A stretch of DNA of 64,000 bases from Woeseiaceae bacterium (GTDB taxonomy: Bacteria > Pseudomonadota > Gammaproteobacteria > Steroidobacterales > Woeseiaceae), in assembly GCA_965232455.1 (NCBI GenBank), contig OZ246981.1, forward strand, positions 3,963,911 through 4,027,910, in the 5' to 3' direction. Of this stretch, positions 172 through 28,428 are shown in pieces. The notes beneath the pieces were generated by a model that did no database searches, was not told where the DNA came from, and saw only the letters and a program-made list of their open reading frames with translations. Each line of letters begins with the position of its first letter. Positions within the stretch are counted from its first letter, which is position 1. The translations under genes and the position numbers were made by a program.

Positions 172-1509
172 ATGGCCAAGCCCCTATGCTTTGTCTTAAT
201 GCCGTTCGGCCAAAAACCGGACGAAACCGGACGGCTGATAGACTTCGACGCCGTTTATGACGACCTTATCAAACCGGCGGTCATTGCCGCCGACCTCGAA
301 CCGATCCGTGCAGACGAAGAGAAGGTTGGCGGGATCATCCACAAGCCGATGTTCGAGCGGCTCGTCATGTGTGAATACGCAATCGCCGATTTGACCACCG
401 CCAATGCGAACGTCTTCTATGAGCTCGGCGTACGTCACGCAGCTCGTCCCTGGACCACGATCGTGGTGTTTGCGGACGGAACCCGCCTGCCGTTCGACGT
501 CGCCCCGCTGCGAGGCATGCCGTACCAGCTCGACAATTCAGGCCGTGCATATCGTGCAGACGATGATTCAGCGGCTCTGACCCGAGTACTGCGGGAAGCC
601 CGCGGTCGGACGAAAGATAGCCCCGTTTTTCAGTTTATCGAGGGCATGCAGGAACAGCAGCTCGATCATGAGAAGACGGACCTGTTCCGGGAACGGATCG
701 ACTACTCGCTGCAGCGCAAGAACCAACTGGCGGAAGCGAGGACGCAAGGCGTCGATGCGATAAAGGAAATAGAGCAAGCGCTGGGGGACCTGGAGGATGT
801 CGAAGCGGGCGTTGTCATCGACCTGCTCCTGTCCTATCGCGCCGTCAAAGCCTGGGAAGAGATGGTGGCGCTGGTGGCGAAGATGCCGCCACCGCTGGCG
901 CGCCTGGTGATCGTCCAGGAACAACTCGGCTTTGCGCTGAATCGGCGAGGCGACCGCCAGCAGGCCGAACGCGTACTGTTGTCGGTGATAAAGGACCATG
1001 GCCCGAGCAGCGAGTCCTTCGGCTTGCTGGGTCGTGTGTACAAAGATCAATGGGATGCGGCGCGGCAAAACAACGATACGATCCTGGCGAAGGGATTGCT
1101 CGACAAGGCGATCGACGCTTACCGGCAGGGCTTTGAAGCGGATTGGCGCGACGCCTATCCGGGCATCAATGCGGTAACCCTGATGGAAGTTCGAGACCCG
1201 CCCGACCCTGCCCGCGAGTCGTTGTTGCCGGTCGTCCGCTATTCGGTGGAGCGTCGGATCGAGTCGGGGCAACCCGATTATTGGGATCATGCCACGCAGC
1301 TGGAACTCGCCGTTCTCGCCAAGGACGAGCAGGCAGCGCTAACGCACCTCGCCAGCTCGGTCGGCGCCATCAGAGAAGTGTGGGAGCCGGAAACGACGGC
1401 GAGGAACCTCAGGCTGATTCGTGAAGCGAGAGAGGAGCGCAATGAAGTCCCGCCCTCCTGGTCCCGCGGCATCGAAGAAGAACTCGAAAAACGGGCACAG
1501 CAGCGCTAG
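172..1509 (+). CDS. Hypothetical protein with an N-terminal Rossmann-like (TIR/deoxyribosyltransferase-like, DUF4071-type) domain and a C-terminal alpha-helical TPR-like region
   Basis: ATG at 172 preceded by AGAGGCG. The N-terminus MAKPLCFVLMPFGQK...YELGVRHA has alternating beta/alpha character. The C-terminal half is helical and repeat-like. Confidence 0.45.
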   Translation: MAKPLCFVLMPFGQKPDETGRLIDFDAVYDDLIKPAVIAADLEPIRADEEKVGGIIHKPMFERLVMCEYAIADLTTANANVFYELGVRHAARPWTTIVVFADGTRLPFDVAPLRGMPYQLDNSGRAYRADDDSAALTRVLREARGRTKDSPVFQFIEGMQEQQLDHEKTDLFRERIDYSLQRKNQLAEARTQGVDAIKEIEQALGDLEDVEAGVVIDLLLSYRAVKAWEEMVALVAKMPPPLARLVIVQEQLGFALNRRGDRQQAERVLLSVIKDHGPSSESFGLLGRVYKDQWDAARQNNDTILAKGLLDKAIDAYRQGFEADWRDAYPGINAVTLMEVRDPPDPARESLLPVVRYSVERRIESGQPDYWDHATQLELAVLAKDEQAALTHLASSVGAIREVWEPETTARNLRLIREAREERNEVPPSWSRGIEEELEKRAQQR

Positions 1510-1712
1510 CTGGACGTCATGACATACTTCAACTGAATGCAGAACTCGGGTTCAACCCGGCGAACGGGCGCCGCAAGGGTAACGTTTGCAGACTATGCTA
1601 TTTGTAGGTCACAGAAAGTCTTGAAGATGACCGCTGCATAAAAAGAAAGCCGGAGCACGAAAAAAACGGGCAGTAAAAATAAAGGCAGCGCTCCGCGAAA
1701 GGAGAACCCAAA

Positions 1713-3764
1713 ATGCACCAAGAGAGGACAATTCGCACGGTCACGATCGAATTTCTGCGGGCCGGGCCACCTCACAATCAGCTGCTGTCGCCGCTGACGC
1801 CGTATCTCGCGGTGTGCGGCGAGGCGGGCGCGACCGTCGTGCACGTGCCGTGGGAGCACGCCCACTTCCTTCGACGCATCGAGGAGATGCGCTACGAGAA
1901 GGGAACCGACGAGGATACGCCGCGCCGCCTCGCTATCCTCGAAGAGACGGGCGCGGAGGTGGCGCGTCTACTGGGACAGATCCCCGCACTCTCGGGCGTC
2001 CTCGGCAGTGACGCCGTTGACGGGGAAGTGCTGCACCTTCGACTCGTCATCTCCGCGTCCGAACTCAGCCTCATCCCCTTCGAGTTGTCGAAGATTCCGT
2101 TTGGCCTGGAGCTACCCGCCGAGAACTGGTTGCTGCTTCAGGCGAACATGCCCGTTTGCATGACGCGCCACGTCCGCAGCGTGCCTTACGGCGGCGTCGC
2201 TTGGGACCGGCGACCGCGGATTCTGTTCGTTGCATCGGATCCGGAGGAACTCCCTTACGAAGAACACCGGAACGCTCTGCTGGAGGCCGTCAGACCGTGG
2301 CTGCATCCCGGACAAGAGAAGAGACCGACGGTTCGCAAGGTCGATGGGGAACGTCGCGCGTATTATTACGGGGATATTCTCACGGTGATGCCCGACGCCA
2401 AGATTCAGGACGTCCAGACGCTCTGCGAGCGGCACACCTACACGCACGTGCATGTGCTCGCCCACGGTGGTGTCGACGAGATGGCGGAAAAGCTCGCCTA
2501 TGGAATCGGGCTCTACGGCGAGATCATTACGGGCGGCCGCTTTGCCTCGGCCATCACCACGAGCACCGACCGGCGTATCGAGCGGCCGGCCGTCGTGACC
2601 CTCGCCTCCTGTGACAGCGCGAACGTCGGTTCGGTGATATCCGCCGGCGCCAGCTTTGCACATGCGCTGCACGAGGCGGGCGTGCCGATGGTCGTTGCTT
2701 CACAGTTCCCGCTGAGCTTCGAGGGCTCCACGACGGCGGTTCGGCGTATGTACGGTGAGCGCGACGGATTTTTGTGGGGCTGCAACCCCCTGTTCATGCT
2801 CCACGAGATCCGCCGTTCACTACAGATCATCAACGAGGCGCACTCCCACGATTGGGCCAGTGTGGTCGTCTTCGAGGCGCTCCCGCCTGACCTTCCCGGA
2901 CAACTTGCGACGTACGGCCACAATCAGGCCGCCCGCGGCCTCAAAGCGGCCGAAAAGCTGCTTCAAAAGGCTGACGAGAATATACCCGATAGCGCGTACG
3001 AACTCGTACACGATCAGCTAACCGCTGCCCGCGGCGCGTGCACTCGAGCGCGCGGAACGCTTGGCGCGAGCGGGCCCTATGCGATCGAAGCACTCGCCCT
3101 GAAAGGGGCCAACTACAAGAAACTCGCGGAGGTCGAGTTCCGGCTCGGAGCGAAACCCAGACTGGGGGCCGAGAAACGAGGGCTTCATTTGCGCCGCTGT
3201 CACGATGCATTGGACAGCGCGTACGAGCAGTATCGCAATGCCGTCTCGAGATTCATGAATCCCGAGACCGGCAGCCAGATGAAAGCGCAACTGCACTATG
3301 TATGCGTGCAGATGCTCGCCCTTGGCACGATACTGGGCAAGGAAGAAATAACCGACGGCTATTGGGAAGTCGCGCGAATCTCGGCGCGCGCCCACACGCG
3401 TTTGCCCAGCGACGAAGAGCGCGCCTGGGCGCTCGGCACGCTGCTCGAACTCAACCTCCTCGGCGTCGCCGATCCCACTCTGGGTCCGCACGCCGCCTCG
3501 GCGGACTACAGGCTGAAAGCTATCGGGCATGCGAACGCGCTCGTAGACCTGTTTCCCAAGCGTGGCGAGTTTCCCGTCTACTCCACCTATCGGCAGCTGC
3601 GTCGCTACGTACGCTGGTGGAGCGCCGCTTCGTTCCTGGCCCAACTGGAACACGAGGGCATCGAACGACGATGGGACGTCAAAGACTCCTGGAAAAACAC
3701 GGTCGAGGTCGCCCGGGAACTCCAGTCAATTCTCGAACCGCGAATCTGGAAATCTCAGAGATAG
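1713..3764 (+). CDS. CHAT-domain (caspase-like) protease with an alpha-helical C-terminal region
   Basis: RBS AAAGGAGAA. The His/Cys dyad motifs HVHVLAHGG and VVTLASCDSANVG are typical of CHAT/caspase-fold peptidases. Confidence 0.7.
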   Translation: MHQERTIRTVTIEFLRAGPPHNQLLSPLTPYLAVCGEAGATVVHVPWEHAHFLRRIEEMRYEKGTDEDTPRRLAILEETGAEVARLLGQIPALSGVLGSDAVDGEVLHLRLVISASELSLIPFELSKIPFGLELPAENWLLLQANMPVCMTRHVRSVPYGGVAWDRRPRILFVASDPEELPYEEHRNALLEAVRPWLHPGQEKRPTVRKVDGERRAYYYGDILTVMPDAKIQDVQTLCERHTYTHVHVLAHGGVDEMAEKLAYGIGLYGEIITGGRFASAITTSTDRRIERPAVVTLASCDSANVGSVISAGASFAHALHEAGVPMVVASQFPLSFEGSTTAVRRMYGERDGFLWGCNPLFMLHEIRRSLQIINEAHSHDWASVVVFEALPPDLPGQLATYGHNQAARGLKAAEKLLQKADENIPDSAYELVHDQLTAARGACTRARGTLGASGPYAIEALALKGANYKKLAEVEFRLGAKPRLGAEKRGLHLRRCHDALDSAYEQYRNAVSRFMNPETGSQMKAQLHYVCVQMLALGTILGKEEITDGYWEVARISARAHTRLPSDEERAWALGTLLELNLLGVADPTLGPHAASADYRLKAIGHANALVDLFPKRGEFPVYSTYRQLRRYVRWWSAASFLAQLEHEGIERRWDVKDSWKNTVEVARELQSILEPRIWKSQR

Positions 3765-3775
3765 GGGGAGGGACA

Positions 3776-4915
3776 ATGGCGAAGAAGAAGAAAAGCACGC
3801 CTGGGGCGACGAAACGCAAAACGACGACGCGCAAAAAGACGGCCGCCGGCAAAACCGTGTTCAGCATCGACATGCTTCCCGCCGACCACGGCGACTGCTT
3901 GATCGTCACCTACGGTAACGGCAAAAAACTATCGCGCATTCTCATCGACTGCGGGACTTCGGGCACCGCCGATCGCCTGCAGGCCAAGCTGCGCACGCTC
4001 AAGCCGAGTATCAAGGACTTCGACCTCTTCGTGCTGACACACGTAGACGCCGACCACATCGGCGGCACTATCGACTTCTTCAACGAGGGCGCAGGGGGAC
4101 TATCGTTCGAGGACGTGTGGTTCAACGGCTGGAAGCACCTGCCAAGGAGACGCCTGAGCGCGAAGCAGGGCGAGATCTTTACGACACTGATCGAGGACAA
4201 CAAGCTGCCCTGGAACAAATGGATGAACGGCAAGGCCATTCTGCTGAAGGGCGGGGACCTGCCTGTCACGACATTAAAAGGCGGCATGAAGATAACGCTG
4301 CTCTCCCCGACCCTCAAGAAGCTCGAGTCCCTGTCGCCCGTCTGGCAGAAAGAACTCGACAAACACGGTTTCGGCGGCGACAAGGCGCGCAAAAGATATT
4401 ATCGCCAGTTCCTGGGCGGCACGACGCCAACGATGAGTAACGTCGAGAAGCTGGCAAACTCGAAATTCGGCGCGGACGGCAGCAAACCCAACGGCAGCAG
4501 CATTGCGTTTCTTGCCGAATATGGCGGCAGGCGCGTGCTGTTTGCTGGAGACGCTCACGCCTCGGTCTTAAAATCCTCCATCTCAAAATTGTTGGACGAG
4601 TCCGCCGAGGCACGCCTGAAGCTGGACGCGTTCAAGCTGCCACACCACGGCAGCCGCGCGAACGTCAGTGCCGACCTCGTCAAATTGCTGGACTGCGAGC
4701 ATTATCTGATATCGACCAGCGGCGCGTATTTCAAGCATCCCGACGGAGAGGCAATGGCGCGCGTCGTCATACACGGCGGAGAACAACCTACACTGCACTT
4801 CAACTACCGCACGAAGTACAACGAGTTCTGGGGCACGGCCGCCGCTCAAAAGAAATTCGGCTACCGCACGAAGTTTCCGCCGAAAGGTAAGGAAGGTATT
4901 ACGGTCGATTTGTAG
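3776..4915 (+). CDS. Metallo-beta-lactamase fold hydrolase
   Basis: RBS GGGAGGG lies 6 nt upstream of ATG 3776. The HxHxDH motif (LTHVDADHIGG) is present, plus later His/Asp ligands (KLPHHGS). The six-frame ORF is longer, but the true start is MAKKKK. Confidence 0.7.
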   Translation: MAKKKKSTPGATKRKTTTRKKTAAGKTVFSIDMLPADHGDCLIVTYGNGKKLSRILIDCGTSGTADRLQAKLRTLKPSIKDFDLFVLTHVDADHIGGTIDFFNEGAGGLSFEDVWFNGWKHLPRRRLSAKQGEIFTTLIEDNKLPWNKWMNGKAILLKGGDLPVTTLKGGMKITLLSPTLKKLESLSPVWQKELDKHGFGGDKARKRYYRQFLGGTTPTMSNVEKLANSKFGADGSKPNGSSIAFLAEYGGRRVLFAGDAHASVLKSSISKLLDESAEARLKLDAFKLPHHGSRANVSADLVKLLDCEHYLISTSGAYFKHPDGEAMARVVIHGGEQPTLHFNYRTKYNEFWGTAAAQKKFGYRTKFPPKGKEGITVDL

Positions 4916-5322: not shown

Positions 5323-7092
5323 ATGAATGAAGTATCGCTAGCAACGCGCAGCTATGAAATCCCCCGCAACAGCGCGTGGTCTGGTAAAAGACCGCGCCGC
5401 GCGTCGATCGTGATGGTTTCAACGGCCGCCGCCGTGCTTTGCGGCTGCTCGTTGTTCGATCCCTATGTCAGCGCGACCGGCCCCGAGGTCGACCATCCGA
5501 TCACTACAGGCGTCAGACTGCCTGCCTGCGAAGCAATGGAGATCAGCGCCAACAGGAGTAACACACTGGCCTGTGCTTTGGGCTGGCAGAACGCGTATCG
5601 CGGCGCATTGAAATCTCAGGCGAAACTGAACTCGTACTCGGGTACGACATTGATCCTTGCCGCCGCCACCGCTTTGGGCATGAGCGGTACCGGTGAAACC
5701 GGCGACGGTATTGTCTGGATCGGCGCCGGGAGTGCGGGAATTTACGGAGCGACGTCATGGCTCACCAGCAAGCCCAGGGAAGCTGCGTACATAGCCGGCA
5801 TGAAGGCAATGAGTTGTGCGGTCACCGTGACGCGACCGCTGATGCTCAGCCAGGCAACAAGCGACTCACTGGACGCAAAGCTGACGGCCCTTCGCGATGC
5901 GCTCGCGGCGGCGCGAACCGCCCTTCGGCAGGCAACGGCGGCGACCCGGAGTTTCGAGGCGGCAAACCCGACCGGCAGCGGGGCTGCCACGATACTGTCC
6001 CGTAGCAACGATATCCTCGCCGCGGCCGACACCGAGATCTCGGGCGCGGCCTTGAATTACGAATCCGGCCTGGAGCTGCAGGTCGCGACCGCCGAAGCGC
6101 CGGGGGCGCTTGCCGCGGCGATTCGCCGCATCAGCGCCGAGGTTGACGAACTGATATCGAAAACGACCGCCGACATACAAGCGCTTCCGGGACTGATCGA
6201 CGGTCTCGCCGGTCTGTCGGGCAGCTTCACTCCGCAAGTGCAGGTAGAAGCCGATCGCGCCGACGATGTAACGGGCGTGGAAGTCCAGGCTGAGAACCTC
6301 CTGGCCGACGAACTGCGTAACAGCATTGAAACCCTGCAAACGGCGCTCGATGCCCTAGGAGCCGCGGCCACGGACGTAAGAGTACTGACGGGCGCCGCCA
6401 GACCGAAGCTGACGCAGGCGGACCTCGACGGCTGCAACATCGACGAATCGGCGATTGAAACGGATATCCGGTTGGTTCCAGACACGATCAGTAACATCGC
6501 CCCCAATACCGCGTTCACTCGAACGATAATGATAAGCGGCGGGAAGGCGCCGTACATGGCGGAAATTCTCGAAGCGCCGGTTGCCAATCTGGCCATCAGC
6601 CAACCTCAGCCGTTCGGGCCACGTGTACAAATTCGGGGTGAGAGCGGCATCCCGGCCGGGACCTATACGGTTTTTATTGCCGATGCGTCGGGTCACCAGC
6701 AGTCGTTAACGCTTACGATTCCGCCTGCCGGCGGCGGCGACGGCGGTTCCGGCGCGGAGAACCAAGGTCAGCCCGAAGACGACTTTGCAGCCAGCGCGTG
6801 TCCCGATGCGGTCAGACAGTCCGATGGATTCAACGAACTGACCGCCTTCGAGGCCGAACTCGACACCAATACACCGCGCGTCGAATGCCTGCAGCAAGCG
6901 TTGGGTATGAGCGGCGACGACGTAGACGGCGACATTGGGCCACGGACCCGCAGCGCACTTTGCCAGCGGGAAATCGTATTGGGTCGTGACGCAACGGGCA
7001 AGTTTGAAGAAGCGTTTGTCGAAGAGCTGATCGCTCAGTGGCTCAATACGCCGGAGGGTACCGGGGCGGTATGCGACGCCGAGCCGACATGA
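5323..7092 (+). CDS. Lipoprotein with Ala-rich coiled region and C-terminal peptidoglycan-binding domain
   Basis: Lipobox VLCGCS follows a basic N-terminus. The C-terminus LQQALGMSGDDVDGDIGPRTRSAL resembles PG_binding_1. Confidence 0.5.
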   Translation: MNEVSLATRSYEIPRNSAWSGKRPRRASIVMVSTAAAVLCGCSLFDPYVSATGPEVDHPITTGVRLPACEAMEISANRSNTLACALGWQNAYRGALKSQAKLNSYSGTTLILAAATALGMSGTGETGDGIVWIGAGSAGIYGATSWLTSKPREAAYIAGMKAMSCAVTVTRPLMLSQATSDSLDAKLTALRDALAAARTALRQATAATRSFEAANPTGSGAATILSRSNDILAAADTEISGAALNYESGLELQVATAEAPGALAAAIRRISAEVDELISKTTADIQALPGLIDGLAGLSGSFTPQVQVEADRADDVTGVEVQAENLLADELRNSIETLQTALDALGAAATDVRVLTGAARPKLTQADLDGCNIDESAIETDIRLVPDTISNIAPNTAFTRTIMISGGKAPYMAEILEAPVANLAISQPQPFGPRVQIRGESGIPAGTYTVFIADASGHQQSLTLTIPPAGGGDGGSGAENQGQPEDDFAASACPDAVRQSDGFNELTAFEAELDTNTPRVECLQQALGMSGDDVDGDIGPRTRSALCQREIVLGRDATGKFEEAFVEELIAQWLNTPEGTGAVCDAEPT

Positions 7093-7141
7093 AGGATACG
7101 GCCGGGTTTTCGCCGGTACCGGCCCCATGATTCGGGGAGGA

Positions 7142-8218
7142 ATGGCAGTACGCCGCACGGACGGCGAGCCTGGAACCTGTGGCGTCATCGTTCAAAGTCG
7201 GCACGATCCTGGAAAAGTATTCGTGCTCAGCAACGCTCATGTCCTCGCGTTTGCCGGCAATCTTGCCGCAAGAATTGGCGACGATATTCTTGAAGGCACA
7301 TCGGGCAACACTGTTATCGCCGAACTCGAGGCGTGGTCCGGTTTGTTGAGTGGCGAATCACTTACCGATGCGGCAATCGCCCAGGTCAATCAACCTGACG
7401 ATGCCGAGTTCTCGATTGTCGATCTCGGCCGGCCCCGGTACGACCCCGCCGTTCGCCCATTTGTCGGGATGCCGGTGCGCATGCGCGGCGCACCCGGCGA
7501 ATTGATCACCGCGACGGTACATCGCACACAGGCGTCACAAGACCATTCCCTGTTCATTCCAATGCGCGGCGAGATGCAGGTTCGTTTTTCGGACCAGCTG
7601 GTAATCAAGTACGACACTCCGCGTCCCGCACTGCTGTCCGGATACAGCGGTTCGGCGGTCGTTGACGAGAATAACCACCTGCTGGGCCTGTTCTGGATGG
7701 GCAGCCGAAACTTCGGTCTTGTTTGCAAGATCGAACATGTCTTCGAGGAGTTCCAGGTAAACCTTGCCGGCAACGTTGCGGCTGTCCCCGCATCAGCGGC
7801 CAGTTTGGCGGCGCCCGGCGACGATACGGTTGACATACTGGCAAAAACCGTATGGGGAGAGGCTCGGGGCGAACCCCCCGAAGGCAGAGAGGCCGTTGCT
7901 TCGGTTATTGTCAATCGGGCGGCGCGCCGTCCCGCGGCGTGGTGGGGATCCACGATAAAAGAGGTCTGTCTGAAGCCGTGGCAATTCTCGTGCTGGAACG
8001 AAAACGATCCGAACAGGGCATTACTCGACAGCGCGCACGAAACGGAAGAATTCGGGGAGATCGAGAGAATTGCGCAGTTGGCCGTAGAGGGCAACCTGAC
8101 AGACCTTACCGACGGAGCCACTCATTACCATACTCGAAACATCAATCCGCACTGGTCTGCAAACAAGCAACCGTGTGCGGAAATCGGCGATCACAAATTC
8201 TATAACGACATCGAGTAG
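7142..8218 (+). CDS. Trypsin-like serine protease fused to SleB/CwlJ-type cell wall hydrolase domain
   Basis: GGGGAGGA RBS before ATG 7142. The N-terminal half has NAHVL (His) and GYSGSAV (Ser) chymotrypsin-fold motifs. The C-terminal half has the WGEARGE...VIVNR...CWNENDP...THYHT Hydrolase_2 signature. Confidence 0.6.
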   Translation: MAVRRTDGEPGTCGVIVQSRHDPGKVFVLSNAHVLAFAGNLAARIGDDILEGTSGNTVIAELEAWSGLLSGESLTDAAIAQVNQPDDAEFSIVDLGRPRYDPAVRPFVGMPVRMRGAPGELITATVHRTQASQDHSLFIPMRGEMQVRFSDQLVIKYDTPRPALLSGYSGSAVVDENNHLLGLFWMGSRNFGLVCKIEHVFEEFQVNLAGNVAAVPASAASLAAPGDDTVDILAKTVWGEARGEPPEGREAVASVIVNRAARRPAAWWGSTIKEVCLKPWQFSCWNENDPNRALLDSAHETEEFGEIERIAQLAVEGNLTDLTDGATHYHTRNINPHWSANKQPCAEIGDHKFYNDIE

Positions 8219-8242
8219 CTCTTCAGACTCGGGAGGCCGTTA

Positions 8243-9190
8243 ATGACCAGCATCAACGCGTACGACTTTGAGCAAGCCAGCGCAAAAGCGTTCAGGGGTG
8301 GTTCAAAAGCCGAGCAAGACTGCCAGAAGATGATCTCACGCCTGAACCTGAAGGACGAAATGAACGGGCCGATCGGTACGCTCGGGCCCCTTTTCAAGGA
8401 ATATGTGACCGAGATTCAGCGAAACATCGTCTGGTATCAAAGCAAACTGTGGCGGGAGCGCCTCAAGAGAGCGTGGTACATCATCTTCAGCTTCGCGTTG
8501 CTCATCACCGTGCCCATCTTTGTCGTGTTCATTCCCGAGTTGGTGCAGAGGTTTGTCGCCACGGGGAACGACCCGACAGTCCAAAACGTGACAGCCCAGA
8601 ACGTGACAGCGCAGTTAACTGCCGTACTTACATCGCTGCTGGCGCTTCACCGCACCGTGTCAACATGGCTCGACAAGCGTAAAGTCGCCGGTCGCTGGGC
8701 GCAGACCAGCGCCCAGCTGAAAGAATTGGTCTGGTCGTTTCACCGTGAATGGGATCCGCGTGACATTACGCCGGCCGTGAAAGGCGAACTGGAAAAGAGA
8801 CTGCGGGACGACATCGCCAAGGCCAGAAAACTGACAAGCGACGAACAGGTGTTTTTCTTCGAGAACATGTCATACCCGAACATCGATATTGCGTCCGTAC
8901 TGAAGTCGAGTCGCGCGGCAGCCGAGCAAATCGTTACCGACAACGCTTCGGCAGAAATCAAAAGAATGGACGAACAGGCCAAACGGAGGATGGCTGTCTC
9001 GAGGGCTCAGGCGCTGGTCAATGAATACCGCGCACTGATTGAGGAGCGACAGGCGGAGTTTCGCGACGCTCTCGCCGATAACGACAAGGCGAAGATAACG
9101 AGGCTGAACAGCGAACTGGGCGACCTCTACAAGAAGTTGAACGCTGCAGAGCTCGACAGGGCGACCGCGTTGGCCGACGCCGCACAATAG
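8243..9190 (+). CDS. Membrane protein with two hydrophobic helices and a C-terminal coiled coil (possible SLATT-like 2TM effector)
   Basis: RBS GGGAGG. TM1 is AWYIIFSFALLITVPIFVVFIP and a second amphipathic helix is LTAVLTSLLALH. The C-terminal 150 aa are heptad-rich. Confidence 0.35.
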   Translation: MTSINAYDFEQASAKAFRGGSKAEQDCQKMISRLNLKDEMNGPIGTLGPLFKEYVTEIQRNIVWYQSKLWRERLKRAWYIIFSFALLITVPIFVVFIPELVQRFVATGNDPTVQNVTAQNVTAQLTAVLTSLLALHRTVSTWLDKRKVAGRWAQTSAQLKELVWSFHREWDPRDITPAVKGELEKRLRDDIAKARKLTSDEQVFFFENMSYPNIDIASVLKSSRAAAEQIVTDNASAEIKRMDEQAKRRMAVSRAQALVNEYRALIEERQAEFRDALADNDKAKITRLNSELGDLYKKLNAAELDRATALADAAQ

Positions 9191-9238
9191 CACGGTATGA
9201 ATTCGGGCTGAGCGGCGCATCCACCGAAGAACGGTCCT

Positions 9239-11065
9239 ATGAAAACCGCAGAACGCTGGGATAAGAACACGCTGGGCGAATTGATGAACTTCATGGCGCC
9301 CGCCCTCTGGCGCGGGAAGAGCGTTCCGCGAGTCCTCGCACAGCGTCGACGGGCCCCGGGGTGGCCACCGGACGTGTTTGCGATGTGCGCCGCAGCGTTG
9401 CATGCGACGGGGGCGCATCGAAGACTGTTCTCGGACAAAGGGGTTGGCGACCATCCCGTGGCCGATACACACAGCTGGCCGCGTCGGGCCAGAGAAATTG
9501 GCGCGTCCTGGAAGGACGCCATAAACAGCCTCAACCGTGACCAGTTGGACAAGGGGAACGGGAACCGGTCTCTTGCCTCGCAGCTCAACGCCAACCCGGC
9601 GCTGCTGAAAAACCGTTCCGGCGAGCTGGACGAGTGGTGGCGGCGATTGATCCATTTCGGCCAGACTCCGCTCGCCGACCTCTTCGACCATGAAGAGATT
9701 CCGGCGTTGTTGATGCAGATCCTCGTGGTGGCGGATGAGGCGTCGGCGGGCATAGGAATTACGCGCTTCAAGCGTAACAGGACTTTTCTGATGTTTGTCG
9801 ACAGCGCAATGGCCGGCAACCGGAATCGCAGTTGTTGCGCCGACGTCTCATTGCAAAGAGCGAGCGTGCTTCCGAAACAACATACGCCGACCAAAGGTCT
9901 GACGCTGCGATCGTTGACTCACCATCTCTCTTATGTTCCTTCGAGCGGCGTGTCGGTAGAGTGGCTGGGGCAACTGGAAAACCGGTCGGATAGTGATGAA
10001 CCGCAGACTGAGGTCAATTTGTTATTGGCCCCCTGGCCGGTGAAATTCTCACCATCCAACTTCCATAGCCTCGATTCGGGATTCGCAGGCGACTATGAAC
10101 TTTTCGGTTATTGGCCGGAGTCGGATGCAGATGACGAGAAAAACGGACGTGAATGTCAGGCGCTCACGCACTATCTCGACGAGGCGTACAGACAAGCACT
10201 TTTTCACGTAGACAAACTTCACATGCTGGTCATGCCGGAAATGTCGGTTACCCAGCGCCAATACGCTACCGTGGTCGAACCCTGGGCAATTACCAAGGGG
10301 GTTGCCGTTGTGGCTGGTGTGTGCGACCGCAAGCAGGGAAAGGACCGGATGTTGCACTACAACCGCTGCATACTGCAGACAGGCGGGCTTTCCAAGCTCA
10401 GGGACCGGTGGGGTGACCTGAGTGTTGGAGAGGCCATCCCGAAAGGAAACCCGCTCGCGGAATTTCGAGTCGAGCAATCCAAGCACCATCGGTGGTTGTT
10501 GGATCGGTCGCAGATAGTCCAGTACGGACTGAGCGGCCGCATTCCGGCGTTCATTGGCAGGAAATACTGGGAAGATATCTGCATTGACGAGAATCACATG
10601 AAAATCGTGACCGTTCTCGGCTGGCTAACCTGCGGAGCGTTGATTTGTGAAGACCTGGCCAGACAGGACAACGTGTCCGAAACCATCCGATCAATCGGAC
10701 CCAATCTCATGATCGCCATTCTGATGGACGGCCCACAGATCAGGCAGCGTTGGCCGGCCAAGTATGCGTCTGTCCTTGCGGAAGACCCGGGCTCCTCGGT
10801 GCTCACGCTGACCAGTCTTGCCATGACGCACATGAGTCGACCCGCTCCGGGCCACGTTGACCGGTCCGGAGTGGTTGCGCTCTGGCACGACGCCCAGCAT
10901 GGCGAGGTGGAAATTGAAATGACCGGGAAACAAAACGCCGCCGTCTTGAGTCTAATCCGGCACGGGGCGGAGGAACTTACAGCCGATGGTAGAAGTGACG
11001 ACGGGGTCGCATACCAACCGGTGTTCGCAGGCTACAATGGTCTCGAGGTTTCGCCAAATCAATGA
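9239..11065 (+). CDS. Large protein with C-terminal carbon-nitrogen hydrolase (nitrilase superfamily) domain
   Basis: Putative E-K-C triad context: LVMPEMS (Glu), HYNRC (Lys region) and GALICEDL (Cys). The N-terminal 300 aa show no recognisable similarity. Confidence 0.45.
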   Translation: MKTAERWDKNTLGELMNFMAPALWRGKSVPRVLAQRRRAPGWPPDVFAMCAAALHATGAHRRLFSDKGVGDHPVADTHSWPRRAREIGASWKDAINSLNRDQLDKGNGNRSLASQLNANPALLKNRSGELDEWWRRLIHFGQTPLADLFDHEEIPALLMQILVVADEASAGIGITRFKRNRTFLMFVDSAMAGNRNRSCCADVSLQRASVLPKQHTPTKGLTLRSLTHHLSYVPSSGVSVEWLGQLENRSDSDEPQTEVNLLLAPWPVKFSPSNFHSLDSGFAGDYELFGYWPESDADDEKNGRECQALTHYLDEAYRQALFHVDKLHMLVMPEMSVTQRQYATVVEPWAITKGVAVVAGVCDRKQGKDRMLHYNRCILQTGGLSKLRDRWGDLSVGEAIPKGNPLAEFRVEQSKHHRWLLDRSQIVQYGLSGRIPAFIGRKYWEDICIDENHMKIVTVLGWLTCGALICEDLARQDNVSETIRSIGPNLMIAILMDGPQIRQRWPAKYASVLAEDPGSSVLTLTSLAMTHMSRPAPGHVDRSGVVALWHDAQHGEVEIEMTGKQNAAVLSLIRHGAEELTADGRSDDGVAYQPVFAGYNGLEVSPNQ

Positions 11066-11179: not shown

Positions 11180-11392
11180 ATGATTACATCAGATTTTGCA
11201 ACTCTGGTGAGCCTGGCCAGCGAGGCGAATCAGGCCAAGCCTTCGCGACGGCTGTTGGATGAACTGGCCAACAGCGTATCGGAAGAAGCCAAGGAAGTGG
11301 CGGAAGCGATTTCCCAGGGGTCCAAGGTTTCATTGAACGAAGACCAGAAGAAGTACTTCGACGCAATCGTCGAACTCGCCGCCGAAACGTAA
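11180..11392 (+). CDS. Small hypothetical protein
   Basis: 70-aa ORF with GAGGA before the ATG. No recognisable similarity. Confidence 0.25.
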   Translation: MITSDFATLVSLASEANQAKPSRRLLDELANSVSEEAKEVAEAISQGSKVSLNEDQKKYFDAIVELAAET

Positions 11393-11436: not shown

Positions 11437-13779
11437 CTATTTTTCGCTACCGGTTGAATCTTTCGCAAGCGCCTGCGCCTCCTCCATCAATGCCGCCGAA
11501 CGCTCGGCATCGCCGGTCGCCCGCGCGTATCTTGCCTGCAGCTCGAGAATCTTCGCGCTGGGTTCCTGCTCGATGACGTACCCGAGCAGCGGTTCGACGG
11601 CCGCGGTGTTTCCCTGATCGAGATACAGATTTGCGAGTTTTACCGCGATCTCCGTTTTCTCGGAGGAGAAACCCGTCGTCTCGACGTGCTCCAGCGCCTG
11701 TTCATAAAACTGAACGGCCTGGGGTACGTTCTCCTTCAACACGGCAACGTCCCCCGCGTACTGCATCGCTTCGATCGCGGGCTCGGGAAAATCCTCGGCC
11801 AGCGCGTCCGCAAGCACGGCGTGAATGCGTGACTCGGCGTCGTCGAGCTTGTTCTCGTCCTTGTCGAGCAGCGCCAGGCGCAGTTCGACCTGTGCGGCCC
11901 TGGAGCGATCTTCGATGGAAATGAAGACGTCACGTGATTCGGCAAACGCTTCGCGGGCGGCGGACATGTTGCCGAGCCCACGTTCCGCGGCCGCGAGCTG
12001 GGCGAGACCGGTGGCGATGAACAGTGCGTCGTTGGCCTCGCGCGCGATCTCGACCGCTTCGCTGGAGGCGGCTCTCGCATCCTCGAAGCGGTCCTCCCGC
12101 TCGTAGAGAACGGACAGCATGCCGAGGATCCGCCCCTGTCCGACGCGATCACCGATGTCGCGCCGGATGGCAAGCGACTGTAAATGCAGGTCTTCCGCTT
12201 CGACAAACCGCCCCTGCAGACGGCGCAGGAAGCCGTAATTGTTCAGCATCATGGCTTCGTTGCGCTTGTCGCCGATGCCGCGGAAACTGACCAACGCATC
12301 GTCGAGGTGCTCCTCGGCTTCGTCGAGTTTCCCGTCGTTCATCGCAATGTTTGCGAGCGTCGAATAGATCTGACCGGGCAGGAGCTCCCATTCGATTTGT
12401 CGAAAGGCGAGCGTCGCGCGCGCCAGCAGGTCGCGCGCCAGGGCGAAGTCGCGACGGTCCTTCGCGAGGATGGCCATCGAAACGGACAGGCGTCCGATTT
12501 CCAGCTTGTCGTCCACGCGTTCCGCGATCTCGATGCCCTGCCGATAGGTCGCGTCCGCCAGCTCGAGCCGCCCGGTGCGGTGATAGACCGTGCCGAGCTT
12601 GGCCAGGACTTCGGCATGCAGGCTGTCGCTGTTTTGCACGTCGTCACCGTCGAGAATGCGTTTGAACGCGGCCTCGGCCTCCTCCCATTCGCCTAAACGA
12701 TACGCGCAGTCGGCACGCCCGATGCGGGCGCGCGTCACGCCCTGGTTGCGCGCCAGCACGACGTCGAACAGGGGTTTTGCCTCGGCGCAGCGGCCCTCGA
12801 GTGCAATGCTCATCGCGCGCGCGTACGCCTCGTTGATGAACGGGTCGTCGTCGATTGCGTCGATGCCTTCGGCCAGCGCCTGGCGCCGGCCGCTCAACAG
12901 CGTCGTCACGCCGCGAACCATGCCTTGAACGAGCGCGGTGCTTTGCTCCGACACCATCGTGGAGCGGTTGCGCCGCCCGTCGTTTCCCACCAGCGTGTAA
13001 TTCAGCCGCAGCCCGCCGACCGTCTGCTCCAGTTCCGAGACCAGCACGTGACTTGCTCCGTGCGAGCGGCGGAGCCGATCGATGTGCGCCTCGGCGTCGG
13101 CCGCGTCGAGGCTGCCGCTCCAGCCCATGTTCTCGACGAAGCTGACGACGTCGGCGGCGCGGACGACGTTCAGTTGGGCGGCGTCGACGAACAGGTCGTT
13201 GGCCAAACCCATCAAGCCGAACTTCGCCCAGCCGAGGTCGGCGTCATCGGTGTTGTTGACGACAGGTAACACCGCGATGCGGACGTTGCCGTCGTCCACC
13301 GGTTGGCGCCAGAGCGCCGCGATGCCGACGGCAAGCAGAACGGCCGCGGCCAGTAACAGCCGGCGCAGCCGGGAAGGCATTCTGCTCCCGGAAGCCTCCG
13401 CGGTCGATCGCGCGGCCGGTTCGGCGGCCTGCCCGGTGTCCCTCACGTCCTCCTCGAGCGGCGCGATGAACTGGTAGCCGTGCCCGTGCACGGTGCGGAT
13501 CACCGCCTGCTCGTCGGCGTCGTCGCCGACGGCCCGCCGGGCTTTCATGATGGCCCGGGTCAGCGACGTCTCGGACACGACCACGGTTTTCCAGACCGCG
13601 TCCTGGAGAGCGTCCTTGTCCACCGCCCGGTGACGCTCCTCGATCAGGAACGCCAGCAGATCGAAGACCCTGGGCTCCAGCTGAACCTGCTTGCCGCCCC
13701 GGGTGAGCCGGCGAGTGTCGAGATCGAACTCGCAGTCGCGAAATCGATAATACTTTTTTGCATCGGGCGCCACGGTCAT
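11437..13779 (-). CDS. Winged-helix (OmpR/CadC trans_reg_C) membrane-anchored transcriptional regulator with TPR repeats
   Basis: The N-terminus YRFRDCEFDLDTRRLTRGGKQVQLEPRVFDLLAFL is a trans_reg_C DNA-binding domain. A single TM segment and many TPR-like repeats follow. Confidence 0.65.
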   Translation of the reverse strand: MTVAPDAKKYYRFRDCEFDLDTRRLTRGGKQVQLEPRVFDLLAFLIEERHRAVDKDALQDAVWKTVVVSETSLTRAIMKARRAVGDDADEQAVIRTVHGHGYQFIAPLEEDVRDTGQAAEPAARSTAEASGSRMPSRLRRLLLAAAVLLAVGIAALWRQPVDDGNVRIAVLPVVNNTDDADLGWAKFGLMGLANDLFVDAAQLNVVRAADVVSFVENMGWSGSLDAADAEAHIDRLRRSHGASHVLVSELEQTVGGLRLNYTLVGNDGRRNRSTMVSEQSTALVQGMVRGVTTLLSGRRQALAEGIDAIDDDPFINEAYARAMSIALEGRCAEAKPLFDVVLARNQGVTRARIGRADCAYRLGEWEEAEAAFKRILDGDDVQNSDSLHAEVLAKLGTVYHRTGRLELADATYRQGIEIAERVDDKLEIGRLSVSMAILAKDRRDFALARDLLARATLAFRQIEWELLPGQIYSTLANIAMNDGKLDEAEEHLDDALVSFRGIGDKRNEAMMLNNYGFLRRLQGRFVEAEDLHLQSLAIRRDIGDRVGQGRILGMLSVLYEREDRFEDARAASSEAVEIAREANDALFIATGLAQLAAAERGLGNMSAAREAFAESRDVFISIEDRSRAAQVELRLALLDKDENKLDDAESRIHAVLADALAEDFPEPAIEAMQYAGDVAVLKENVPQAVQFYEQALEHVETTGFSSEKTEIAVKLANLYLDQGNTAAVEPLLGYVIEQEPSAKILELQARYARATGDAERSAALMEEAQALAKDSTGSEK

Positions 13780-22858: not shown

Positions 22859-24073
22859 ATGAACCTAGCGGACACAGGGTTGCGCAAACAACCGTTTCGT
22901 ACCCATGGCAAGCCACTGGTGCTTGTGCCGTATGCCGCACAGAGAAACGCCGCCCGGTTTCTCGACGATACCTGCGTCAACAAACACGGCCTGGGACTAT
23001 TTCACGGCCCGCCCCTCTCGGGAAAAACGACGATCGTGCAGCAATTCGCAAGTTCGCTGCCGCGCGACCACGCAGTTGCCGTCGTCGATGGAGCGCGCAC
23101 GGATCCGGACAAGCTACTGAAGCAGATTCTGAGCCAGTTCGGTTACGACCAGGGCGTCAATACGGCCAGTGAACGTTTCAACATGATCCGGGTGGTCGCC
23201 TTGCAGCAGGCCGCAACCGGCCGGCCGCCGGTGCTCGTCATCGAGAACGTCCACAAGATGACGCCGATACTGCTGGAGATGCTTTGCGAGCTGGCCGAGA
23301 TGTCGGTCGATAGAACCAGCGCACTCAGGATCATTCTTGTGAGTGATCATCCGATGCTGCCCATTGTGGAAGCGCCGGCGATGCAATCGATCGAGAACCG
23401 CCTGACCGGCAAGTTCCTCTTGAAGCCGTTGACGCGGACCGAGACGGCTATTTACGCGCACAAGAAACTCAAGAGCGGCGGCTGTTACAACCCGAGGGCC
23501 GTGATGCCGCCGGCGGTGTGCAATCGCTTGCATTCGGCGTCGGGCGGCTGGCCCGGCGTTATCGACCGGCTGGCAATGATGGCGCTGGCGAAAGCCGAAC
23601 ACGTTCCCTTGCTGGTCGAACACATCCCGAAAAGGCTCCAGAAAGACAAGAAGCCACCCAACGTCGTCACCCCCCCACCGCAGCTCATCCTGACCTACAA
23701 GCACAAGATGCTGGGAAAGATCAGTCTCGACAGGCCGCGCTATTTGATCGGCCGAAACGCGCATTGCGAAATCGAGATCGTCCACGAATGGATCAGCCGG
23801 CAACACGCCATCATCGTCCGCAACAAGAAGTCCACCGTGATCGTGGACCTGAAGAGTCGCAACGGGACGTACGTTAATGACCAACGCGTCAAGAGCCACG
23901 TCCTCATCAACAACGACATCGTTTCCCTGGGCGATCATCGCCTCAAATTCGTCGACCCGTCGGCCACACACCGGACCAGCCTGCGCGGCGCCGGATGGGA
24001 CGCCACCACGCTGACCCAATCTATCCGGGATTCTCGCAAGGTGTTGATCAGGAAGTTGAGGAGGACGAGTTGA
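22859..24073 (+). CDS. AAA ATPase (ExeA/GspA-like) with C-terminal FHA domain
   Basis: Walker A GPPLSGKTT, then an ExeA-like AAA region. The C-terminal region has an FHA-like beta-sandwich pattern (RYLIGRN...NGTYVN). Confidence 0.55.
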   Translation: MNLADTGLRKQPFRTHGKPLVLVPYAAQRNAARFLDDTCVNKHGLGLFHGPPLSGKTTIVQQFASSLPRDHAVAVVDGARTDPDKLLKQILSQFGYDQGVNTASERFNMIRVVALQQAATGRPPVLVIENVHKMTPILLEMLCELAEMSVDRTSALRIILVSDHPMLPIVEAPAMQSIENRLTGKFLLKPLTRTETAIYAHKKLKSGGCYNPRAVMPPAVCNRLHSASGGWPGVIDRLAMMALAKAEHVPLLVEHIPKRLQKDKKPPNVVTPPPQLILTYKHKMLGKISLDRPRYLIGRNAHCEIEIVHEWISRQHAIIVRNKKSTVIVDLKSRNGTYVNDQRVKSHVLINNDIVSLGDHRLKFVDPSATHRTSLRGAGWDATTLTQSIRDSRKVLIRKLRRTS

Positions 24074-26525: not shown

Positions 26526-26603
26526 CAACTCCTACCTGCTCCACCACCCAGATGAGTCGTCCAGGCGACGACGGCGGACTGTTAATCCGCGCTGAGCGAG
26601 GTT
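26526..26603 (+). tRNA. tRNA-Asn(GTT)
   Basis: Acceptor CCCAGAT/ATCTGGG, anticodon arm GCGGA-CTGTTAA-TCCGC, T-arm CGAGG-TTCGAGT-CCTCG, encoded CCA. Directly abuts the previous tRNA. Confidence 0.7.
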
Positions 26604-26604
26604 C

Positions 26605-26678
26605 GAGTCCTCGATCTGGGGCCAAGGCTCTGTGGTGAAATGGGATCACATGCCCCTGTCACGGGCAATTCCGGGGAT
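26605..26678 (+). tRNA. tRNA-Asp(GTC)
   Basis: Acceptor GGCTCTG/TAGAGCC, D GTGA..TCAC, anticodon arm TGCCC-CTGTCAC-GGGCA, T-loop ATCGAAA, CCA. Confidence 0.75.
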
Positions 26679-26684
26679 CGAAAC

Positions 26685-26755
26685 CCCGTAGAGCCGCCAA
26701 ACAACTGTCCGGGTACGGGGTACAGCCGGTCCTTACAAGACCAGCTTGCTGAGTT
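26685..26755 (+). tRNA. tRNA-Val(TAC)
   Basis: Acceptor TGTCCGG/ACGGACA, anticodon loop CTTACAA, T-arm CTGAG-TTCGAGT-CTCAG, CCA. Confidence 0.55.
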
Positions 26756-26762
26756 CGAGTCT

Positions 26763-26848
26763 CAGACGGACAACCAGGTCTATGCGGGTGTGGCGGAAGC
26801 AGGCAGACGCGCCGGGTTCAGATTCCGGTGTCTCATGACGTGTGGTTT
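26763..26848 (+). tRNA. tRNA-Leu(CAG), class II
   Basis: Acceptor GCGGGTG/CACCCGT with G1:U72. Anticodon arm CCGGG-TTCAGAT-TCCGG, variable-arm hairpin GTC-TCAT-GAC, 86 nt, CCA. Confidence 0.55.
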
Positions 26849-26852
26849 CGAG

Positions 26853-26928
26853 GCCCTCCACCCGTACCAGATTGGGGGGTGCTCAAGGGTAAGCTGGTTT
26901 CCCTTGCAAGGAGACTGTATGCGCGGAG
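26853..26928 (+). tRNA. tRNA-Ala(TGC)
   Basis: Acceptor GGGGGGT/ATCCTCC with the G3:U70 identity pair. Anticodon loop CTTGCAA, T-arm CGCGG-AGCGTTA-CCGCG, CCA. Confidence 0.7.
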
Positions 26929-26934
26929 CGTTAC

Positions 26935-27066
26935 CGCGATCCTCCACCAGATGCTGCGGCCGTCGTTTAAAGGCCAGGACAACGGTTGTTGATTCGCGGC
27001 TTCGCCGCTCACCTTTCACGCGTACTCGCTGACGCTCGTACGCCTGTTGGACGATTATGCCGGGTT
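26935..27066 (+). tRNA. tRNA-like gene with about 55-nt internal insertion (identity unresolved)
   Basis: Acceptor GCGGCCG/TGGCCGT with two G:U pairs, T-arm CCGGG-TTCAAGT-CCCGC, CCA. The 132-nt length implies an intervening segment. Confidence 0.35.
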
Positions 27067-27067
27067 C

Positions 27068-27144
27068 AAGTCCCGCTGGCCGTACCACGCTCCTATCGTC
27101 TAGTCGGACCAGGACACCACTCTTTCAAGGTGGAGACCGGGGAT
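27068..27144 (+). tRNA. tRNA-Glu(TTC)
   Basis: Close match to the canonical tRNA-Glu body (GTCTAG..GGAC, CTTTCAA). T-loop variant ATCGTAG, CCA. Confidence 0.8.
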
Positions 27145-27150
27145 CGTAGC

Positions 27151-27219
27151 CCCGTAGGAGTACCAGACAATGTTGAGGTAGCCGAGGAGGCATTTGGACT
27201 GTGACCCCGACTCAGCGGT
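27151..27219 (+). tRNA. tRNA-His-like (GTG), atypical
   Basis: Anticodon loop CTGTGAC. Ambiguous 3' end, no G-1, one acceptor mismatch. Confidence 0.35.
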
Positions 27220-27220
27220 T

Positions 27221-27290
27221 CGAGTCCGCGCCTCACCCCACGATGCGGAGCTGGGAGTACACGCAGGCTGCAACCCTCCGTTCGACGGTT
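27221..27290 (+). tRNA. tRNA-Cys(GCA)
   Basis: Perfect acceptor GATGCGG/CCGCATC, anticodon loop CTGCAAC, T-arm GACGG-TTCGAGT-CCGTC, CCA, 70 nt. Confidence 0.55.
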
Positions 27291-27292
27291 CG

Positions 27293-27356
27293 AGTCCGTC
27301 CCGCATCTCCAACTCTCTGTAGCGTAATTTGGTGACCCGCCCGCAGGGTGAGCGCA
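27293..27356 (+). other. Stand-alone copy of the structured module flanked by a 7-bp terminal stem
   Basis: TCTCTGT...CCCGCAGGGTGAGCGCAGCGAATC...GCAGAGA. Same core as the T-loop inserts. Confidence 0.3.
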
Positions 27357-27367
27357 GCGAATCACTC

Positions 27368-27443
27368 CTGCCGCAGAGACCGGATAACTGCGCTGTAGCT
27401 CAACGGTCAGAGCATCCGTCTGATACACGGGAGGCAGGTGGTT
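27368..27443 (+). tRNA. tRNA-Ile(GAT)
   Basis: D GCTC-AACGGTCA-GAGC, anticodon arm TCCGT-CTGATAC-ACGGG, T GGTGG-TTCGACT-CCACT, CCA. U1:G72. Confidence 0.75.
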
Positions 27444-27444
27444 C

Positions 27445-27515
27445 GACTCCACTCAGCGCGACCACGCTTCGACTGTTAGTGCAGTCCCGTCGTTGCCATC
27501 GACCGGTGCCGGGTG
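27445..27515 (+). tRNA. tRNA-Gly(GCC)
   Basis: Perfect acceptor GCTTCGA/TCGAAGC, anticodon loop TTGCCAT, T-arm CCGGG-TGCGATT-CCCGG, CCA. Confidence 0.6.
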
Positions 27516-27516
27516 C

Positions 27517-27588
27517 GATTCCCGGTCGAAGCTCCACGCCCGACAAGCATTAACGGTGATGCACCGGCTTTGTAACCCGGAGAACGGG
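27517..27588 (+). tRNA. tRNA, probable Thr(TGT); no encoded CCA
   Basis: Acceptor GCCCGAC/GTTGGGC, T-loop ATCGTTA. The anticodon stem is imperfect. Confidence 0.35.
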
Positions 27589-27597
27589 GATCGTTAC

Positions 27598-27673
27598 CTC
27601 GGTTGGGCACAATACGATCGCGCAGTAGCTCAACGGTCAGAGCGGCACCCTCATAAGGTGCGAGGTGCGGGTT
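27598..27673 (+). tRNA. tRNA-Met(CAT)
   Basis: Anticodon arm GCACC-CTCATAA-GGTGC, T GCGGG-TTCAACT-CCCGC, CCA. C1:U72 mismatch. Confidence 0.75.
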
Positions 27674-27676
27674 CAA

Positions 27677-27819
27677 CTCCCGCCTGCGCTACCAGATACG
27701 GTGACCAACCGGATCGGAGTCTTCCCTGCGAAGGAAGACCGTGCAGGTTGGAACGCAAGCTTCGCTCGCTCACCGCCGCTATGCGGCGGTGTCTGTCGCA
27801 GCGCGTTGTGCTGCTCGGC
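27677..27819 (+). tRNA. tRNA-Arg(GCG) with 72-nt T-loop insert
   Basis: Acceptor ACGGTGA/TCGCCGT, anticodon arm TCTTCC-CTGCGAA-GGAAGA, T-stem GCAGG/CCTGC. The insert contains hairpin CCGCCGC-TAT-GCGGCGG. Confidence 0.5.
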
Positions 27820-27820
27820 T

Positions 27821-27893
27821 GAGTCCTGCTCGCCGTGCCAAACCCTCTCCGGTGGACCCGGTGGCGGCGCTTCGAACGCTGCTTAAGGAAGTT
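27821..27893 (+). tRNA. tRNA-Arg(TCG)
   Basis: Perfect acceptor ACCCTCT/AGAGGGT, anticodon loop CTTCGAA, T GGAAG-TTCGATT-CTTTC, CCA. Confidence 0.6.
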
Positions 27894-28173: not shown

Positions 28174-28250
28174 GTAGCCGAGGCATCCTGACAATCCTCC
28201 GTAGCTCAAGCGGGCAGAGCACCGGGCTTTTAACCTGTGAGATGTCGGAT
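28174..28250 (+). tRNA. tRNA-Lys(TTT)
   Basis: Acceptor TCCTCCG/CGGGGGA, anticodon loop CTTTTAA, T-arm GTCGG-ATCGTGG-CCGAC, CCA. Confidence 0.7.
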
Positions 28251-28255
28251 CGTGG

Positions 28256-28345: not shown

Positions 28346-28351
28346 CGAGTT

Positions 28352-28422: not shown

Positions 28423-28428
28423 CGATTC

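Follow-up and report, generated by a model that had tools for sequence, protein, structure and literature searches.

A run of four genes on the forward strand of a Woeseiaceae bacterium genome (contig OZ246981.1), here called g1 to g4, raises the question whether genes that are packed as tightly as those of an operon also work as one system. They lie in a 64,000-nucleotide (nt) stretch of DNA that was analyzed as a whole and is referred to as the window. The initial annotation, made from the sequence alone, regarded the four genes as a single operon that encodes a peptidoglycan-binding lipoprotein, a trypsin/SleB fusion, a SLATT-like coiled-coil membrane protein with two transmembrane (TM) helices, and a protein with a carbon–nitrogen (CN) hydrolase domain. 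It suggested envelope remodelling, or a role as an effector set linked to the CHAT module upstream. The coordinates of the four open reading frames (ORFs; 5323–11065) and their close spacing of 24–48 nt were confirmed, with gaps of 34 nt between g1 and g2, 24 nt between g2 and g3, and 48 nt between g3 and g4 (Table 1). Tight same-strand spacing alone is no proof of a functional unit, and the comparison of loci showed that the region consists of two units. One is the trio g1–g2–g3 (5323–9190, about 3.9 kb), which is a conserved, previously undescribed gene set. The other is g4, which adjoins the trio only in this genome.

The separation of g4 from the other genes became apparent when 82 loci with g4 homologs were searched by tblastn with all proteins of the window. 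These loci contained no relative of g1, g2 or g3, or of the TPR-S, CHAT and MBL proteins that are encoded upstream of g1, and g4 was found in none of the other trio loci. When the neighbors of g4 homologs were clustered, the largest shared family was present in at most 6 of 80 loci. A same-strand neighbor within 150 nt was found upstream of g4 homologs in 22 of 74 cases and downstream in 12 of 76, and the neighboring genes were mainly ordinary metabolic ones. Instead of a trio, the closest relative of g4 (69% identity, locus L167) has a gene for a PlaB-like phospholipase (7–1392 of that locus; E = 2.8e-107 against Legionella PlaB) 17 nt upstream. Since g4 occurs without g1–g3 in 82 loci, has no conserved neighbors and mostly lacks a close one on its strand, it is an independent and usually monocistronic gene. 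With both the tblastn search and the neighbor clustering negative, the four-gene functional unit was rejected. The initial annotation had itself named the outcome that would speak against it, namely domains from well-known housekeeping families that are not conserved together; this describes the relation of g4 to the other three genes, but not the relation of g1, g2 and g3 to each other.

The proposed connection with the upstream module did not hold either. No homologs of the window TPR-S, CHAT and MBL proteins were found in 166 loci searched, 7 of them trio loci, so co-occurrence of the two gene groups (172–4915 and 5323–11065) was not observed and an obligatory link between the CHAT module and the trio was rejected. 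Pfam annotation of the trio loci that were added later identified a TPR-S protein in one of them (L177) and CHAT or MBL in none. The MBL hydrolase of the window matches Lamassu LmuA (1.7e-73), Avs1a of AVAST type 1 and reverse transcriptase-associated MBL effectors, and the TPR-S/CHAT/MBL gene set is probably a separate defense system. The alternative of a single system comprising g1–g4, perhaps together with these three upstream genes and with g1–g4 as their effector set, would account for the tight packing of the genes and the lack of a predicted terminator between them. It would also fit the recurrence of TPR-S or TIR modules near trios with a g3-like partner, and a nitrilase domain is known as the effector of the DRT1 defense system (PMC13275509), which is the best, albeit insignificant, sequence match of g4 among solved structures (E = 0.18). 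However, g4 accompanies g1–g3 nowhere else, the upstream proteins have no homologs in the loci mentioned above, and a gap of 407 nt lies between the two operons, which makes this explanation very improbable.

The trio itself recurs as a unit. A g1-like gene is located directly upstream of every g2-like fusion examined, that is, in 11 further loci (L083, L084, L085, L092, L096, L168, L169, L170, L176, L177 and L178). In ten of these, g2 is also adjoined by a gene for a membrane protein, which is related to g3 in four loci (type A) and is of a different kind in six (type B). The type A gene of L177 is convergent to g2 and lies 4 nt beyond it. Type B partners are proteins of 450–710 amino acids (aa) in which an N-terminal TM helix is followed by others, and their C-terminus holds a weak peptidoglycan-binding domain. 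The remaining locus, L092, has no membrane partner and a transposase nearby. A split version of the arrangement was observed in L090 (2597–6900). Here the protein encoded after the g1-like gene is a distinct one of 420 aa that contains a V8/Spl-like serine protease domain, and Hydrolase_2 is encoded by a gene of its own close by on the opposite strand. The occurrence of protease and hydrolase as nearby but unfused genes supports a functional connection behind the g2 fusion. In addition, endolysin-type Peptidase_M15_4 genes are found next to or near three of the type B trios (Table 1).

g2 is composed of a chymotrypsin-fold serine protease domain followed by a SleB/endolysin-type hydrolase domain. 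The second domain was identified with Hydrolase_2 (PF07486) at E = 4.9e-21 (75.7 bits, with a cut-off of 27), and Trypsin_2 scored 27.1 bits on the first, just short of its cut-off of 27.6. The protease triad follows the His-Asp-Ser order that is canonical for the S1 family and PA clan, on a trypsin-like fold, which places the domain in this group. H38, D81 and S174 of the triad and E245 of the hydrolase are invariant across 25 aligned g2 homologs. This was in agreement with a search of solved structures with the g2 profile, which matched the SleB catalytic domain at 2.6e-13 and Der p 3, V8 protease, HtrA and factor Xa with E values from 6e-8 to 1e-5. The trypsin/SleB fusion of the initial annotation is thus well founded. 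It was considered unusual there, and it proved to be recurrent rather than unique, as it is found nearly full-length in roughly 100 clusters among the matches listed, several of which are named ‘cell wall hydrolase’. When metagenomes were scanned with the g2 alignment as seed, mostly stand-alone Hydrolase_2 genes were returned; the only full-length fusions were those of L092 and L096, and L090 turned out to be the split version described above. The trypsin-domain matches on plasmids are unrelated stand-alone proteases. In the protein collection, g2 is represented by a 331-aa copy that starts about 32 codons downstream, so that 7127–7222 is cut off and the invariant G16 is missing. Because this shorter copy omits conserved N-terminal residues, the start at 7127 is preferred.

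Two properties of g2 bear on its function. The first is its relation to phage enzymes: it matches endolysin and protease families of PHROG, and residues 232–363 are 44–49% identical to endolysins of Pseudomonas, Pelagibacter and Caulobacter phages. The NCBIfam model of SleB (TIGR02869), in comparison, gave 42 bits with a cut-off of 236.5, a score that does not make g2 an ortholog of the spore enzyme. The second property is that no signal peptide was found in any of the 25 aligned sequences. Housekeeping periplasmic hydrolases are exported, and so is SleB.

g3 is predicted to consist entirely of helices (AlphaFold2 model with a predicted local distance difference test score, pLDDT, of 91). Its hydropathy profile contains one strong TM segment (residues 79–97), and a second, amphipathic helix at about residues 112–143 was read from the sequence and the model. 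The Lys/Arg-rich flanks suggest, from the distribution of charge only, that both ends of the protein are cytoplasmic. In the architecture of the SLATT superfamily, two TM helices precede a cytoplasmic region that is also helical. The superfamily includes DUF4231 (PMC9812332), and its members are predicted pore-forming effectors of conflict systems (PMC7159879). The architecture of g3 is the same. A word-indexed search for homologs of g3 found only two proteins, and an exhaustive profile search was needed to recover its family of 307 representative clusters. DUF4231 was matched by 17 and SLATT_1 by 5 of 53 relatives of g3, in all cases below threshold (best E = 4e-4), and in two homologs that were examined singly the DUF4231 match covers the TM region. 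As these matches are weak but recurrent, the SLATT-like label given to g3 by the initial annotation is plausible as remote homology: the architecture stands, and g3 may be a distant relative of the SLATT clan. No match of g3 to PHROG families or PADLOC models was found.

g1 has the features of a bacterial lipoprotein. Its N-terminal region (KRPRR...AAAVLCG-C42) starts with basic residues, which are followed by a hydrophobic core and the lipobox. The G41-C42 pair of the lipobox is invariant in seven homologs, and a lipobox is also present in further homologs. G134, Y156, G159 and C165, which belong to a Gly/Ala-rich hydrophobic hairpin shortly after the lipobox, are invariant in the same seven proteins. 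The initial annotation was therefore correct in calling g1 a lipoprotein, whereas for peptidoglycan binding only weak indications were found. PG_binding_3 matched with E = 0.004, which is under the Pfam cut-off, the g1 profile gave a weak match (E = 0.019) to the peptidoglycan-binding domain of Pseudomonas SltB3, and one homolog has a weak precomputed PG_binding_1 match. No PHROG family was matched by g1.

Taken together, these features resemble most closely the lysis cassettes of phages or the suicide effectors of the SLATT type, but the trio belongs to neither group. No model of PADLOC-DB v2 covers it, and it was not found in the main survey of conflict systems (PMC7159879). As in the lysis cassettes of Gram-negative phages, the hydrolase is signal-less and endolysin-like, and its gene has a lipoprotein gene and the gene for an exchangeable membrane partner as neighbors. 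In contrast to them, the trio is located outside any prophage (the neighbors listed are cellular genes), its hydrolase shares one polypeptide with a serine protease, its membrane protein has 290–710 aa whereas a holin is small, its lipoprotein, of 460–660 aa and with a peptidoglycan-binding domain, does not resemble an o-spanin, and g1 and g3 belong to no PHROG family. With the SLATT effectors of conflict systems (Burroughs 2015; Kaur 2020, PMC7159879), the trio shares the two TM helices and helical cytoplasmic C-terminus of g3, and TIR-containing genes occur near three trios. It differs from them in that g3 has no match at a curated threshold, in that no SMODS, SLOG or TIR gene is present in the window, and in that the constant partners of the trio, the protease–hydrolase and the lipoprotein, are absent from the SLATT systems described in that survey.

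From these comparisons we tentatively propose, with somewhat less than even confidence, that the trio may be a holin/endolysin-like module for triggered cell lysis, perhaps one of abortive infection. As we infer it, g2 would be made in the cytoplasm as a signal-less polypeptide that joins a protease to an endolysin-type hydrolase. The membrane partner, g3 or a type B protein, would be a holin-like or SLATT pore-like gate that, once triggered, opens the inner membrane, and the opened gate would give the hydrolase domain access to the cell wall, which would then be cut. The protease domain could serve as a switch, either by self-cleavage or by cleavage of g3 or g1. g1, lipid-anchored in the periplasm, might tether the attack on the envelope or bring it to completion, as a partner of the spanin or YpeB kind. 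Whereas g1 and g2 remain constant, a non-homologous protein can take the place of the membrane partner, which also occurs among holins. The endolysin-type Peptidase_M15_4 genes next to or near three type B trios likewise fit a lysis function. If the trio is indeed a module for triggered lysis, bacteria would be reusing the logic of the phage endolysin against the phage, with the protease as a safety catch, and SLATT-like proteins would gain a concrete job, the gating of a wall hydrolase.

The absence of a signal peptide and the similarity to endolysins also bear on the envelope remodelling that the initial annotation had put forward. In this alternative, g2 would be bifunctional, with a protease that cuts peptides and a SleB-type domain that cuts glycans, and would be part of a regulated complex for cell-wall remodelling or autolysis, in which it is restrained and positioned by g1 and the membrane partner. 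A precedent exists in Bacillus, in which SleB is held by the membrane-anchored YpeB until cleavage of YpeB by the serine protease HtrC sets it free (PMC13393411). The trio has the same elements, that is, a Hydrolase_2 catalytic domain, a membrane-anchored partner and a trypsin-fold serine protease, and peptidoglycan-binding-like domains are present on both g1 and the type B partners. However, its protease and hydrolase form one signal-less polypeptide, the N-terminal domain of this polypeptide is the protease and not a peptidoglycan-binding domain, its hosts are Gram-negative non-sporeformers, and g1 has no sequence match to YpeB. A remodelling complex would also not be expected to have few relatives (about 150 clusters of g2 in 5.8 billion proteins) with a patchy distribution, or neighborhoods that differ from locus to locus. 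Remodelling is thus an unlikely explanation, and triggered lysis is preferred over a routine function of this kind since g2 is signal-less and its hydrolase domain is closest to endolysins of phages, which depend on holins.

With its membrane protein, its lipoprotein and a wall hydrolase that lacks a signal peptide, the trio also matches the three-part logic of holin/endolysin/spanin-type (type 10-like) secretion, in which the wall would be opened locally for the release of large cargo or vesicles and the population would survive. The secretion system with which the trio was compared in this respect is Serratia ChiWXYZ. No conserved cargo gene, however, adjoins the trio in the 12 loci, and neither g1 nor g3 has a match among the holin and spanin families of phages, which makes secretion of this type improbable. 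The lack of a signal peptide would likewise suit an antibacterial effector, as cargo of the type VI secretion system (T6SS) is usually without one; g2 would then be the effector, delivered for example by a T6SS, and the periplasmic g1 its immunity lipoprotein. In the Amantichitinum locus (L168), the trio is indeed located directly upstream of vgrG, lipase effector and Tli4 immunity genes. This is the only one of the 12 loci with T6SS genes nearby, though, and g2 carries no known T6SS delivery domain. In addition, g1 and its homologs (460–660 aa, with a coiled coil) are far larger than known immunity proteins, and no role would be left for the conserved membrane partner. An effector–immunity pair is therefore the least probable of the explanations considered.

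Returning to triggered lysis, the genes that surround the trios give an indication of what its purpose might be. About half of the trio loci are near TIR, STAND or restriction genes (Table 1). TIR genes in particular were observed near 3 of 12 trios (L083, L096 and L177), one of which, L096, has a type B partner. The recurrence of TIR, TPR-S and STAND genes near the trio makes a looser link possible, either through a defense island or as a sensor and its effector. Because defense-gene neighbors are frequent, we infer that the most plausible outcome of lysis would be altruistic suicide on phage infection. The more specific proposal that g1–g2–g3 is a new anti-phage abortive-infection system, that is, a lysis cassette domesticated by the host, with interchangeable gates and possibly triggered by TIR or TPR-S proteins, is doubtful.

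Several observations weigh against the reading of the trio as a defensive lysis module. The protease–hydrolase fusion was found in no phage record searched. Searches of PADLOC-DB v2 with g1 and g2 gave only marginal matches to Lamassu models (E about 1e-3), and the match of g2 to the LmuA model was of this kind (E = 0.0011). g3 was not found on plasmids in a plasmid search. In four trio loci (L168, L169, L170 and L178), the surrounding genes are of T6SS, regulatory or metabolic type and none is defense-related, which would also fit a remodelling function. In a PADLOC comparison of the neighbor sets, some defense matches were present in that of the g4 family as well as in that of the trio, so that an enrichment of defense genes near the trio is putative. 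The role given to g1 is a guess. As regards the separation into two units, g4 may after all be co-transcribed with g1–g3 in this genome, given the 48-nt gap and the negative terminator scan.

The second unit of the region, g4, is composed of an N-terminal domain with conserved motifs of its own and a C-terminal domain with the four-layer alpha-beta-beta-alpha sandwich of the nitrilase fold. The carbon–nitrogen hydrolase with E..K..C residues in MPEM and GALICED that was recognized initially was confirmed: E334 (MPEM), K415 (KHHRW) and C470 (LICED, CEDLARQ) are invariant in 29 aligned sequences, and D422, a second acidic residue located seven residues past the catalytic Lys, is at least 90% conserved. 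g4 gave no match to Pfam (CN_hydrolase included) or NCBIfam at E ≤ 0.1, and none to PADLOC or PHROGs. Since no curated sequence model detects it, its membership in the nitrilase superfamily is assigned from the fold and the motifs. It differs from other members in its low sequence identity (only 7–16%) and in its unique, conserved N-terminal domain of ∼250 aa, and represents a new, uncurated branch of this well-known superfamily. The intact triad and the nitrilase fold indicate that g4 is probably an active enzyme of the amidase or acyl-transferase type. At least 837 full-length relatives were found, in 417 species-representative genomes, and the hosts among the matches listed are mainly Acidobacteriota, Pseudomonadota, Myxococcota and Planctomycetota. 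In contrast to DRT1, g4 has no reverse transcriptase; the insignificant DRT1 match is its one pointer to defense, and its mostly ordinary genomic contexts argue against such a role. The family, whose hosts belong mainly to soil phyla, escapes every curated model although its nitrilase active site is intact and its N-terminal domain is unique, which makes it a clear target for enzyme discovery. Four weak relatives of g4 are present in viral contigs. The gene is followed in the window by a 70-aa ORF (11180–11392, forward strand) with a weak PRA-PH/MazG-like match (E = 0.0013). Small ORFs 3′ of g4 homologs were seen in a few other loci, and neighbor clustering revealed no conservation of them.

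Table 1. Features of the g1–g4 region and its surroundings in the window, and of the compared loci (coordinates of L-numbered loci refer to the respective locus)
Feature	Location	Strand	Description
g1	5323–7092	+	589-aa lipoprotein; ORF confirmed
g1, Gly/Ala-rich hydrophobic hairpin	about residues 105–150		conserved; boundaries read from sequence
g1, Ala-rich coiled-coil region			boundaries read from sequence
g1, beta-rich domain	about residues 395–470		boundaries read from sequence
g1, peptidoglycan-binding-like domain	about residues 515–560		weak; C-terminal
g2	7127–8218	+	363-aa serine protease/Hydrolase_2 fusion; ORF confirmed
g2, chymotrypsin-fold serine protease domain	about 7181–7690	+	H38, D81, S174
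g2, SleB/endolysin-type Hydrolase_2 domain	about 7868–8203	+	E245 in GEARGE; conserved Cys281, Cys289
g3	8243–9190	+	315-aa all-helical membrane protein; ORF confirmed
g3, TM hairpin	about 8474–8671 (residues 78–143)	+	followed by long C-terminal coiled coil
g4	9239–11065	+	608-aa predicted cytoplasmic protein with nitrilase/CN-hydrolase C-terminal domain; ORF confirmed
g4, N-terminal domain	about 250 aa	+	motifs WPPD, ADEAS.GIG, LPKQHTP
g4, nitrilase/CN-hydrolase domain	about 10001–11053	+	E334, K415, D422, C470
TPR-S/MAP3K_TRAF_bd protein	172–1509	+	upstream of g1
CHAT protease	1713–3764	+	upstream of g1
MBL hydrolase	about 3776–4915	+	upstream of g1
Type A membrane partner	window, L083, L084, L085, L177		g3-like
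Type B membrane partner	L096, L168, L169, L170, L176, L178		unrelated to g3
Peptidase_M15_4 gene	L169, 11031–11837		
Peptidase_M15_4 gene	L176, 10150–10965		
Peptidase_M15_4 genes	L170, 5140–6213 and 12918–13991		
Trio neighbor	L083		TIR-WD40
Trio neighbors	L096		ThsB-like TIR at 5.8e-64; calcineurin-like phosphoesterase
Trio neighbors	L177		patatin, TPR-S, pYEATS-TIR
Trio neighbor	L176		STAND NTPase
Trio neighbor	L085		type IIG restriction-modification gene

The GC content of the g1–g4 genes is 0.56–0.62, compared with 0.60 for the whole window. As these values are close to the window mean, base composition gives no sign of a foreign origin of the region. Scans for promoter and terminator consensus sequences at g1–g4 gave no signal above chance. 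On the side of g4, and convergent to it, the reverse strand encodes a 780-aa regulator with Trans_reg_C and TPR domains (11437–13779). Farther downstream, an AAA_22 ATPase domain and a C-terminal FHA domain are combined in one protein (22859–24073, forward strand). The window also contains an array of 18 tRNA genes within about 4.3 kb (26547–30892, forward strand), in which those for Asp, Val, His, Ile and Lys are duplicated, and an additional tRNA-Leu gene beyond this array (35195–35273). Such dense tRNA arrays are unusual and are often associated with mobile elements.

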